Below are positions 26,641 to 30,621 of a stretch of 64,000 nucleotides of DNA, piece by piece. How positions within the stretch are numbered: the first letter of the stretch is position 1; each line of letters opens with the position of its first letter. A program made the position numbers and the translations under genes. The stretch comes from Escherichia coli (GTDB lineage Bacteria > Pseudomonadota > Gammaproteobacteria > Enterobacterales > Enterobacteriaceae): NCBI RefSeq assembly GCF_051903065.1, contig NZ_CP178438.1. One strand, 5' to 3'. Below the pieces are notes generated by a model. It was not told the origin of the DNA. It searched no databases and saw only the letters and a program-made list of their open reading frames with translations.

Positions 26641-27405
<765 letters not shown>

Positions 27406-27499
27406 GTTTCTGAACAACTCACGTTGCTGAGCAGAAAAATGCGATTTAACCAAAAAGCCTGCTGTACACTTAAGAAACAAGAAGGTGTAAGGAGGCGTT

Positions 27500-28033
27500 A
27501 TGAAAACGCGTATTCATGTTGTGCAGGGTGATATTACCAAACTGGCCGTTGATGTGATTGTGAATGCGGCTAATCCTTCATTAATGGGAGGTGGCGGCGT
27601 CGATGGGGCCATTCATCGCGCAGCGGGGCCGGCCCTGCTGGATGCCTGTTTAAAAGTCAGGCAACAGCAGGGCGATTGCCCTACGGGGCATGCCGTTATT
27701 ACGCTTGCAGGCGATCTTCCCGCTAAAGCCGTAGTGCACACCGTCGGGCCAGTCTGGCGTGGTGGTGAACAAAACGAAGACCAGCTTTTGCAGGATGCCT
27801 ATCTCAATAGCCTACGACTGGTGGCGGCAAACAGCTATACGTCAGTGGCTTTTCCTGCAATCAGTACTGGGGTTTATGGTTACCCTCGTGCGGCAGCGGC
27901 TGAAATCGCAGTAAAAACCGTTTCAGAATTTATTACCCGTCACGCTTTACCCGAACAGGTATACTTTGTCTGTTATGATGAAGAAAACGCCCACCTCTAC
28001 GAAAGACTCCTTACCCAACAAGGAGATGAATGA
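27500..28033 (+). CDS. ymdB: Macro-domain protein YmdB (O-acetyl-ADP-ribose deacetylase, RNase III modulator)
   Basis: 177 aa [25 protein letters not shown]... Confidence 0.93.
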
Positions 28034-28034
28034 T

Positions 28035-29456
28035 TTGCCCCGGCTGGCGAGCGCGGTGCTGCCACTGTGTTCGCAACATCCTGGTCAGTGTGGTCTTTTC
28101 CCTCTGGAGAAAAGTCTGGATGCGTTTGCCGCCCGGTATCGTCTGGCCGAAATGGCAGAGCATACGCTGGATGTTCAGTATTACATCTGGCAGGACGATA
28201 TGTCGGGTCGGTTACTGTTTTCCGCCCTGTTAGCCGCAGCAAAGCGTGGCGTTCGCGTCCGTTTGTTGCTGGACGACAACAATACGCCCGGACTTGACGA
28301 CATTTTACGCTTGCTTGACAGTCATCCCCGCATTGAAGTCCGGCTTTTTAATCCTTTCTCGTTTCGCTTGCTGCGTCCGCTTGGTTATATCACCGACTTT
28401 TCCCGTCTCAATCGCCGTATGCACAATAAAAGTTTCACTGTCGATGGCGTGGTTACCCTGGTGGGAGGACGAAATATTGGTGATGCCTATTTTGGGGCAG
28501 GGGAAGAGCCACTTTTTTCGGATTTAGATGTTATGGCAATAGGACCCGTGGTAGAGGACGTTGCCGATGATTTCGCCCGCTACTGGTATTGCAAATCGGT
28601 TTCACCCTTACAGCAGGTGCTGGATGTCCCGGAAGGTGAAATGGCGGATCGCATCGAGTTACCCACCTCCTGGCATAACGATGCTATGACGCATCGTTAC
28701 TTACGCAAAATGGAATCCAGTCCGTTTATAAATCATCTGGTTGATGGAACGTTGCCGCTTATCTGGGCGAAGACACGTTTATTAAGTGATGATCCGGCGA
28801 AAGGGGAGGGCAAGGCAAAACGGCATTCACTGTTACCGCAGCGCCTGTTCGATATCATGGGCTCACCCAGTGAACGCATCGATATTATCTCTTCCTATTT
28901 TGTACCGACACGCGCAGGTGTGGCGCAACTCTTACGGATGGTGAGAAAAGGGGTAAAGATTGCGATCCTAACCAATTCTCTTGCCGCTAACGATGTTGCT
29001 GTCGTCCATGCCGGATACGCGCGCTGGCGCAAAAAATTGCTCCGTTATGGCGTGGAATTATATGAACTCAAGCCGACGCGTGAACAAAGTAGTACGTTAC
29101 ACGATCGCGGCATAACAGGTAATTCCGGTGCCAGCCTGCATGCTAAAACCTTTAGCATCGATGGTAAAACGGTGTTTATCGGCTCTTTCAATTTCGATCC
29201 GCGTTCAACATTGCTCAATACTGAAATGGGCTTCGTGATAGAGAGCGAAACGCTGGCACAGTTAATTGATAAACGCTTTATTCAGAGCCAGTATGATGCG
29301 GCCTGGCAGCTCCGTCTGGACAGGTGGGGACGGATCAACTGGGTTGATCGTCATGCAAAGGAAGAGATTATTCTCAAAAAAGAACCCGCCACCAGTTTCT
29401 GGAAGCGGGTTATGGTCAGACTGGCGTCGATATTGCCCGTGGAATGGTTATTGTAA
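28035..29456 (+). CDS. clsC: Cardiolipin synthase C (PLD superfamily)
   Basis: 473 aa from TTG 28035 (AAGGAG 9 nt upstream), two HxK(x4)D motifs; in-frame ATG at 28026 overlaps the ymdB stop. Confidence 0.88.
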   Translation: MPRLASAVLPLCSQHPGQCGLFPLEKSLDAFAARYRLAEMAEHTLDVQYYIWQDDMSGRLLFSALLAAAKRGVRVRLLLDDNNTPGLDDILRLLDSHPRIEVRLFNPFSFRLLRPLGYITDFSRLNRRMHNKSFTVDGVVTLVGGRNIGDAYFGAGEEPLFSDLDVMAIGPVVEDVADDFARYWYCKSVSPLQQVLDVPEGEMADRIELPTSWHNDAMTHRYLRKMESSPFINHLVDGTLPLIWAKTRLLSDDPAKGEGKAKRHSLLPQRLFDIMGSPSERIDIISSYFVPTRAGVAQLLRMVRKGVKIAILTNSLAANDVAVVHAGYARWRKKLLRYGVELYELKPTREQSSTLHDRGITGNSGASLHAKTFSIDGKTVFIGSFNFDPRSTLLNTEMGFVIESETLAQLIDKRFIQSQYDAAWQLRLDRWGRINWVDRHAKEEIILKKEPATSFWKRVMVRLASILPVEWLL

Positions 29457-29463
29457 ATGTGGC

Positions 29464-30621
29464 TTAACGGGCTGGTGCTTTATCGTTCTCACGCTTAACA
29501 ACCGGTTTACCAGAAAACAAAAACTTCAGTAACGGGATGCGTAAATGAATTTCATACAGAATTATCGCAATCCCTACTACGAATATCAGGCCACAGAGAA
29601 AACCAAGCCAGTTGGAGGTGATGTGCGGTGTAATGTATGCGCCGAAAAACAGCGTTAACGGGTGGTGAACCAGATAGATAAACAGCGATGCGTTAACAAA
29701 GTAAGTCACCCGCGCTGACTGGAAGTTAAGCAAACGGTGGCCAAAGGAGAAGACCACATTCACCATCCACAGACCGAGGACCATGGTGATCACCGACTCG
29801 GTTTCGTACATCCAGGCATCGCCACTGCCATAGCGCTGGTTGAGTAAATAAGCGACAAACGCCAATGCTGCAGCGAGGGTACAGCCACGAGACGGCGTGG
29901 TAAACAAGGCTTTAAGATGAGGGAAAATGAAAGCCAGTGCGCCGAGGATAAAGAACGGTAAATAAAATAGCGTTTGCATGACAATAAAATTGAACATGCC
30001 ATTACTCAGAATGGGCGGATACACAATAAAAATCGTTCTTCTTATTACCGCATAACCGATGCCGAGGCACAAAAAAATCACCGATAGTTTTACCATCGAG
30101 AATTTTTTATTCGTTTTATCAGAATTTTCTAAATTATTTCTGATGCGTTTAAATATCCATACGCACAGCGTCGTCATGACCACTAACACCAGTAAAAACC
30201 ACAGGTGTGATATTAATTCCCAGGCTAACGTATTATATTTGTCATACAATGACAGCCCAGGCCAACTTTCCGCTTTCCCTTTGACGTATTGCAGCATAAT
30301 AAATTGCGGCAATGTCAGTAGGGGGATGGCTGTTAACATCGGGATCCCTACACGTTCGACACGTACTTTCCACCATTTTTTCAAGGGATAGCGTAAAAAA
30401 AGCATGTAGGAAAAGTAGCCGGATATAACGAAAAATACCTGCATGCGGAACGAGTGGATGAAGTCATTAAAAAGGGTCAGCCACAATGACGGTTCGGCGC
30501 TATTCACATGCCATGTATGGCTCGAATAGATTAAAGAAATATGAAAAGGGATCCCTAACAACATCAGCCAGGCGCGGATGGAGTCGAGGAAATATTCACG
30601 TTGCGCGGGTACTGGATTCAT
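29464..30621 (-). CDS. opgC: OPG succinyltransferase OpgC (MdoC)
   Basis: 385 aa polytopic acyltransferase. Confidence 0.93.

Follow-up and report, generated by a model that had tools for sequence, protein, structure and literature searches.

Comparative evidence for a proposed ancestral clsC translation start inside the 3′ end of ymdB in Escherichia coli

Where translation of clsC begins is a question with two published answers. In Escherichia coli, clsC follows ymdB in the csgBAC-ymdA-ymdB-clsC-opgC region, here contained in a window of 64,000 nt (64 kb), by which the whole stretch of DNA analyzed is meant and to which coordinates refer throughout; ymdB and clsC are described in the literature as an operon. 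YmdB matches NCBIfam NF001660 over its full length (residues 1-177 of 177; 376 bits against a cut-off of 271), as well as Pfam Macro, and ClsC, a cardiolipin synthase of the phospholipase D (PLD) superfamily, contains two PLD-like HKD domains (PLDc_2 twice, 138 bits, together with the PLDc active-site motif). From 27966 onward the clsC frame stays open until its stop codon at 29454-29456, and the ymdB stop codon falls inside this open frame, as an earlier note on this DNA had pointed out from direct reading. The curated K-12 MG1655 record (b1046, NP_415564.2; 1106355..1107776 of NC_000913.3, in which ymdB ends at 1106353) starts clsC at TTG 28035, which corresponds to position 1106355. The Prokaryotic Genome Annotation Pipeline (PGAP) uses ATG 27975 in nine of nine RefSeq E. 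coli records checked besides MG1655. The annotation is thus split, and the issue is which start is used; the comparison presented here favors the region of the PGAP start, 60 nt upstream of the curated one.

The candidate starts and the features around them are collected in Table 1. The earlier note proposed that clsC initiates at TTG 28035, 9 nt downstream of an AAGGAG motif, to give a 473-residue product, and that ATG 28026 abuts this motif with no spacing; all of these readings are correct, and the proposal as a whole stands in part. It failed on two counts: TTG 28035 does not overlap the ymdB stop, as the title of the note had it, but begins 1 nt after it (the gap is T 28034), only the upstream candidates being overlapping; and the list of candidates was incomplete, since ATG 27975 and ATG 27978 (60 and 57 nt 5′ of TTG 28035), TTG 27966, and GTG 28056, a further in-frame start-type codon, were overlooked. 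Because TTG 28035 is the curated K-12 start, with which the proposal is identical, the finding as written was already known. The upstream start is likewise already present in PGAP records, and ATG 27978 was independently, if not conclusively, flagged by TetRP (PMC4909307). What is added here is the comparative case for the upstream ATG, made of conservation, stop avoidance, and synonymous constraint; a conserved TATACT-N9-ATG block; and a tie to the effect of ymdB on ClsC levels.

Table 1. Features of the ymdB-clsC junction in window coordinates
Feature	Coordinates	Strand	Remarks
ymdB Shine-Dalgarno (SD) sequence TAAGGAGG	27488-27495	+	ymdB's own
ymdB coding sequence (CDS)	27500..28033	+	177 aa, macro-domain O-acetyl-ADP-ribose deacetylase; open reading frame (ORF) list, RefSeq annotation
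Block of excess synonymous-site conservation, ymdB codons 152-162	27953..27985	+	candidate clsC expression signal
TATACT, -10-like hexamer	27960..27965	+	9 nt upstream of ATG 27975; speculative promoter
TTG, first start-type codon of the mechanical ORF	27966..27968	+	in frame, 496 aa; minor candidate
clsC long form, ATG 27975	27975..29456	+	493 aa; 59-nt overlap with ymdB, +1 frame; PGAP annotation
ATG 27978, adjoining ATG 27975	27978..29456	+	492 aa; 56-nt overlap with ymdB
Inverted repeat CTCCTT-N7-AAGGAG	28007..28025	+	predicted mRNA hairpin sequestering AAGGAG; terminator scan (minus strand), minimum-free-energy fold
ymdB Leu-Thr codon pair CTT ACC	28010..28015	+	key stop-avoidance site
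AAGGAG, SD-like hexamer	28020..28025	+	within ymdB codons Q-G-D
ATG adjoining AAGGAG	28026..28028	+	in frame, 476-aa form; unlikely start
ymdB stop codon TGA	28031..28033	+	direct reading
TTG, K-12 curated clsC start	28035..28037	+	CDS 28035..29456, 1422 nt, 473 aa

Variation within E. coli says little about the choice. A 1001-nt query spanning the junction matches 5423 of 5426 complete E. coli genomes, and the 100-nt junction itself is at least 99% identical in 5061 of these 5423; in six sampled variants all start codons and SDs are untouched and no stop arises. Since they spare all the candidate signals, population variation is uninformative, and no ClsC-specific NCBIfam model exists against which the N-terminus could be compared. 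Comparison across genera is another matter. Junctions came from genomes representative of their species, as well as from contigs that carry selected orthologs, and were aligned on the codon that matches the Arg of E. coli “PRLA” (28041), from which the distances below are counted, except in the start-mapping data, where they run from TTG 28035. All in-frame ATGs of Salmonella and of at least 12 further genera lie at −60 to −72, the equivalent of E. coli 27975/27978, with an occasional extra GTG or TTG at −21 to −36. None of the junctions from Salmonella, Leclercia, Pseudescherichia, two Enterobacter, Superficieibacter, Kosakonia, Siccibacter, Cedecea, Cronobacter, Buttiauxella, Atlantibacter, and Intestinirhabdus carries a start codon close to the ymdB stop or overlapping it. 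Judged by these sequences, the long overlapping form of clsC is the only option in all of these genera, and an ATG in the upstream region is kept in every ymdB-linked genome but that of Citrobacter werkmanii.

The TTG has a narrower distribution. A start codon at its position (−6) is confined to the Escherichia/Citrobacter clade, in which it is TTG in five of the 12 taxa (E. coli, E. fergusonii, C. amalonaticus, C. tructae, and one metagenomic relative) and ATG in three (C. youngae, Citrobacter FP75, and C. werkmanii, the C. freundii group); the codon is TTA in E. albertii and in one Citrobacter-like genome, CTG in a third relative, and AAA in Salmonella. The exact pairing of AAGGAG with TTG was found only in E. 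coli and E. fergusonii among the genomes examined, and the combination of SD and start codon is not conserved across orthologs: E. albertii has AAGGCG in place of AAGGAG along with its TTA, and retains both the ATGATG and the conserved block described below. C. werkmanii has gone the other way. An indel near the ymdB 3′ end (around 2480-2500 of locus L007) altered the frame relation, so that ymdB ends with CTG ATA TGA, the clsC ATG lies within ATATGA to form an ATGA overlap, and the former extension is closed by three stops; ClsC of this species would be a genuine short form with classical coupling geometry. Among ClsC homologs without an upstream ymdB, a tail of only two residues, as TTG 28035 implies, occurs in 1 of 56, and in Erwinia and Pantoea clsC starts 15-17 codons before the anchor, preceded by good SDs.

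If clsC starts inside ymdB, has this left a mark on the ymdB codons? The clsC frame is free of stops over the overlap in 19 of 20 genomes. When ymdB was recoded in simulation, with synonymous codons drawn at each genome's own usage, the probability that the clsC frame would be open was 0.17-0.30 in 15 of the 20 genomes. The key site is a Leu-Thr codon pair at which CTG, CTA, TTG, or TTA would create a stop in the clsC frame, CTG, the commonest Leu codon, making TGA. Leu171 is encoded by CTT or CTC in 17 of 18 genomes, and the single CTG is found where the next codon begins with G. Synonymous constraint, measured in 8-codon windows as the fraction of pairs of genera that share the codon among those that share the amino acid, points to the same region: codon sharing is 0.44 ± 0.05 along ymdB and reaches its maximum of 0.74 at codons 152-159 (CAG GTA TAC TTT GTC TGY TAT GAY; column-shuffle p = 0.016), with the ten highest windows all within codons 149-165.

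The block of excess conservation spans codons 152-162, which in E. coli read GAA CAG GTA TAC TTT GTC TGT TAT GAT GAA GAA. Tyr159 is TAT in 14 of 14 genomes; TAC would destroy the ATG. Between E. coli and Salmonella, 11 of 11 codons are identical in the block as against 50 of 107 elsewhere (p = 4e-4). Within Escherichia, codon identity is raised in the overlap tail (p = 0.017 each for E. albertii and E. fergusonii) and, between E. coli and E. fergusonii, in block and tail together (p = 3e-4). Decay of the block and loosening of the constraint are seen only in the C. freundii group, the one with ATG at −6. Two features expected of a dual-coding overlap are found: the frame is kept open beyond what synonymous drift would allow, and the start is conserved with excess synonymous constraint. 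The block itself is a candidate translation initiation region and/or promoter of clsC.

What happens to clsC when ymdB moves away or decays? Phytobacter and Yokenella have a complete ymdB with a different 3′ end, which stops ~120-130 nt before the clsC ATG (Phytobacter, 2316-2432 of locus L015; Yokenella, 1371-1500 of locus L089). Their ymdB carries its own “F-type” 3′ end (VIFVCFD...), and the spacer keeps a decayed copy of the “Y-type” ymdB 3′ end, which extends over ~55 nt upstream of clsC. In this non-coding context TATACT-N9-ATG is retained in Phytobacter and TATAAT-N9-ATG in Yokenella, a pattern that suggests that the overlap was resolved by duplication or replacement of ymdB while the 5′ signals of clsC were kept. 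In Intestinirhabdus alba (1266-1560 of locus L091), residues 1-112 of ymdB are replaced by unrelated sequence and a premature TGA takes the place of Gln173 in the remnant. Both the block and the long clsC ORF have nevertheless stayed intact, and the ORF has no alternative start. This arrangement argues that clsC is independent of ymdB translation in that species.

A programmed +1 frameshift, which would yield a YmdB-ClsC fusion, was also considered and rejected: the ATG persists in Phytobacter and Yokenella, whose ymdB ends more than 100 nt upstream, and several genomes have stops in the clsC frame just upstream of the ATG. The idea had been prompted by ORFs of 651-653 aa in public assemblies that join the YmdB macro domain to ClsC, among them E. 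coli-like sequences (1 and 6) and Salmonella-like ones (28 and 4). These ORFs read the clsC frame from well upstream of 27966, which implies a 1-nt indel further upstream in ymdB; they could be real frameshift alleles or assembly errors.

Published start-mapping data bear on the two starts unequally. TetRP (Nakahigashi et al., 2016; PMC4909307) lists “ECK1032 ymdC ATG -57”, which is window position 27978, with a weak signal of 0/30.1/16.1 as against 0/0/5.7 at the annotated TTG; its search range excluded −69, the position of TTG 27966. In INRI-seq (PMC9825163), the synthetic clsC transcript began at −30 and spans AAGGAG, ATG 28026, and TTG 28035, but not 27975. TTG 28035 received 0 counts per million (CPM) in five of five replicates, with 316 CPM for the clsC transcript and 123 CPM for ymdB, and there was no peak at ATG 28026; the method detects about 70% of annotated starts (PMC9825163). 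The zero fits the inefficient initiation that the earlier note had expected of the TTG. In vivo Ribo-RET, which detects only ~18% of genes, is also 0 for clsC. The data sets searched held no ClsC N-terminal peptide, and neither TRAINSPOTTER nor Giess 2017 has a clsC entry. As a whole, the start-mapping data lean to the upstream ATG, with the TTG at best a poor stand-alone site.

On balance, it is somewhat probable that the upstream ATG 27975/27978 is the ancestral start and in E. coli continues to serve as the principal or co-principal one, that the signals for clsC lie in the last ~80 nt of ymdB, and that AAGGAG-TTG is a younger secondary start. The clsC translation start region would then be located inside the ymdB 3′ end, and the ATG pair, in the +1 frame relative to ymdB, would direct synthesis of a 493/492-aa ClsC, the first ~20 residues of which would be a disordered tail encoded by the overlap. 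The expression signal would be a block of ~30 nt upstream of and across the ATG (TATACT-N9-ATG-A-rich), fixed at synonymous sites of ymdB. AAGGAG-TTG 28035 would be a younger feature of Escherichia/Citrobacter, possibly giving rise to a minor product of 473 aa, probably on condition that a CUCCUU/AAGGAG hairpin is opened by ribosomes completing ymdB; E. albertii would have lost this module again, and among the C. freundii group its TTG would have turned into ATG and taken over. Both the codon actually used by E. coli ribosomes and the recognition of an SD-less ATG are inferred here.

Several observations weigh against a principal start at the upstream ATG. The pair has no usable SD (the best is −3.8 kcal/mol at 13 nt), and its 41-nt folding energy is average (48th-50th percentile); with TTG 28035 at the 63rd percentile, the signature of an unstructured start region does not discriminate between the sites and was set aside. 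In the AlphaFold2 (AF2) model of the long form (predicted TM score 0.78), the predicted local distance difference test score is below 50 for residues 1-19 and confident structure begins at residue ~21-23. The extension is thus a disordered tail, both products would hold the whole enzyme, and the modeled fold has no need of the N-terminal extension, the residues of which are altered freely by E. coli polymorphisms. A lipoprotein signal (LPLC) was rejected, since its Cys is not conserved (e.g., APVS in Leclercia). The K-12 curators picked the TTG on purpose, as version.2 of the protein record indicates, and the choice made by PGAP is no independent evidence. The TetRP authors class ymdC as “not conclusive (5′ ORF)”: the signal is ambiguous because the site lies inside the strongly expressed ymdB, where elongating ribosomes are not separable (PMC4909307). 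A negative INRI-seq result is common to ~30% of genes. A start at −6 is enriched in the Escherichia/Citrobacter clade and is the sole one in C. werkmanii. Finally, the YmdB residues Y-D-E by themselves impose part of the conservation seen at the ATG. Is this need of YmdB all that keeps the ATG in place? Stop avoidance, synonymous constraint, the pattern of relaxation, and the natural experiments say no.

The main alternative makes TTG 28035 the sole start of a 473-aa ClsC: AAGGAG would recruit or retain ribosomes, those terminating ymdB translation would unfold the hairpin and re-initiate, and the upstream ATGs would be a relic held in place by ymdB coding. The TTG does have the best SD of all candidates, a canonical one (AAGGAG(A), duplex energy −8.5 kcal/mol, spacing 8-9 nt), and lies within coupling distance, stop and start being 1 nt apart. 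It is the curated MG1655 start; of the 12 Escherichia/Citrobacter taxa, 8 carry TTG or ATG at this codon, and C. werkmanii, with its ATGA overlap, has no other start. The AF2 fold begins at this residue; furthermore, ymdB in cis raises the ClsC level. The predicted hairpin, in which CUCCUU (28007-28012) pairs with AAGGAG (−5.1 to −6.2 kcal/mol; probability of AAGGAG being unpaired at most 0.11), adds a rationale: with AAGGAG almost fully paired, initiation at the TTG would fit ribosomes translating ymdB opening the hairpin, and this dependence on upstream translation would explain the INRI-seq zero on a naked transcript. However, the hairpin was rejected as a conserved regulator, having neither conservation nor covariation (RNAalifold gives ~0 kcal/mol for six Escherichia/Citrobacter/Salmonella junctions; single-sequence z-score, −0.47), and the SD-sequestering fold may be at most a possibility specific to E. 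coli/E. fergusonii. AAGGAG occurs at chance frequency (15 in the window against 20 ± 5 expected), TetRP is near 0 at the TTG, and the codon has been replaced, as described above, in E. albertii (along with its AAGGAG), two other relatives, and Salmonella. The block, in turn, is under strong synonymous constraint between E. coli and Salmonella and among Escherichia species, as would not be expected of a dead relic, and the mechanism cannot operate in Intestinirhabdus, Phytobacter, or Yokenella. Hence TTG 28035 as the only start is unlikely. The earlier note's choice of a TTG initiator keeps the curated annotation and the best SD on its side; the signals of selection center on the upstream ATG, and E. 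albertii has TTA. Translational coupling at the ymdB stop, which the note had taken to be implied, is possible in E. coli; from the distribution of junction starts, it cannot be the general mechanism across the gene family.

Two other in-frame codons fit the observations poorly. ATG 28026, with a 476-aa product, is an initiator stronger than TTG and within reach of ribosomes ending at the ymdB TGA 5 nt downstream, which could scan back and re-initiate independently of an SD; it is also kept in E. coli, E. fergusonii, E. albertii, and C. tructae. Its zero spacing to AAGGAG, its absence from C. amalonaticus, Salmonella, and most genera, the missing INRI-seq peak, and the fact that no annotation uses it make it very improbable as the start, and its presence is a by-product of the codons for the C-terminal G-D-E of YmdB. 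TTG 27966 (496 aa) would offer another explanation of the conserved block, as SD, spacer, and start codon, with AGG at 27957-27959, 6 nt upstream, as a short SD. This TTG is in frame and conserved at −75/−81 in most overlapping genomes, and Cedecea and Buttiauxella have a strong GAGGUG / AAGGUGAU at this place. Against it, Phytobacter has an in-frame TGA there and Yokenella no start codon, and both keep the ATG; AGA takes the place of the AGG in E. fergusonii, Kosakonia, and Superficieibacter; and the TetRP signal is assigned to −57, albeit with −69 beyond its search range. Initiation at 27966 is accordingly hard to credit.

If the upstream ATG is used, how would it do without an SD? One proposal is that the block is an intragenic promoter, with TATACT as the −10 element, a transcription start at about G 27972, and a near-leaderless clsC mRNA (3-nt leader, AUG 27975) that needs no SD. 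TATACT-N9-ATG is present in 17 of 21 overlapping genomes, the hexamer matches TATAAT at five of six positions, and in the wider pattern, RGG-TATACT-TTGTCTG-YT-ATG, a conserved G, with T before it, stands seven bases past the hexamer; in Yokenella, where coding no longer binds the hexamer, it reads TATAAT, a perfect match. The rest of a promoter is harder to find: the −35 hexamer at a 17-nt spacer is CCGTCA (three of six matches), and there is no TGn, only a G at −14, so neither an extended −10 nor a proper −35 element is present. The promoter scan did not call the site, the Cappable-seq entries listed, which come from growing cells, include no mapped 5′ end at 110629x or 110551x, and a text search of the literature on leaderless mRNAs and transcription start sites found nothing for clsC. 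The promoter is thus quite doubtful. Were it real, clsC expression would be independent of ymdB translation and dependent on ymdB DNA in cis, which would account for (i) a conserved ATG that lacks an SD; (ii) the fixed N9 in a non-coding context; (iii) the ~55 nt kept upstream of the ATG where ymdB moved away; and (iv) the induction of ClsC in stationary phase and the “ymdB requirement” seen with cloned genes.

A system of this type, a leaderless or near-leaderless mRNA made from an intragenic promoter that provides a second translation start, is reported for VirF21 of Shigella (PMC5101355). clsC resembles it in having an SD-less ATG with a −10-like hexamer at a fixed short distance inside another CDS. 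It differs in its poor −35 (CCGTCA) and in a predicted 3-nt leader instead of a 5′-terminal AUG; the parallel is offered as a hypothesis only.

Classical translational coupling takes place at stop/start junctions such as the UGAUG and AUGA overlaps of, e.g., the trp operon. ymdB and clsC share with it the arrangement of same-strand operon genes, a TTG 1 nt after the stop, and, in C. werkmanii, a true ATGA overlap. Unlike in classical coupling, most genera with ymdB-clsC have no start at the junction, the conserved start lies ~55-65 nt inside the upstream gene, and in Intestinirhabdus, Phytobacter, and Yokenella clsC cannot depend on the translation of ymdB.

Some observations concern the surroundings of the junction. 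clsC and opgC/mdoC (29464..30621, minus strand) are convergent, with 7 nt between their stop codons, and a simple scan of 29454-29466 found no terminator-like site between them. Upstream, RefSeq product names for ymdA (27094-27405) vary among “protein YmdA,” “YmdA family protein,” and “type 1 fimbrial protein.” Five of the ~5420 matches to the ymdB-clsC junction are on records labeled as plasmid rather than chromosome. In NZ_CP069990.1 (E. coli FDAARGOS_1304), a single piece accounts for only 57% of the 1001-nt query and two places in the record match; ymdB, annotated there as “macro domain-containing protein,” appears disrupted or rearranged.

Why does it matter where clsC begins? Reviews from the Dowhan/Bogdanov group report that more ClsC is made from clsC clones that include ymdB, “by an unknown mechanism,” and count this among the unanswered questions. 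Under either start model, signals for ClsC synthesis lie inside ymdB, which offers a simple cis explanation for ymdB DNA raising ClsC. If the long-form model is true, a “clsC-only” clone cut at the annotated TTG would be without its native start codon. With the start and its signal 60-80 nt inside ymdB, the ymdB effect would be one of expression in cis, not of protein partnership, a reading that fits the title of a 2024 paper, according to which the ymdB product is not required. The disagreement about the ClsC N-terminus, 473 aa in K-12/UniProt-style records and 493 aa in thousands of PGAP genomes, has consequences for constructs and tags as well as for antibodies and proteomics searches. The matter is of moderate interest, chiefly to specialists in E. 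coli phospholipid synthesis and start-site annotation. For the gene family, the locus would be a clear example of start-site migration, from an ancestral internal ATG, through a new junction start in Escherichia/Citrobacter, to its takeover in the C. freundii group, and it would also show how an overlap can be resolved while the 5′ signals of the downstream gene persist.

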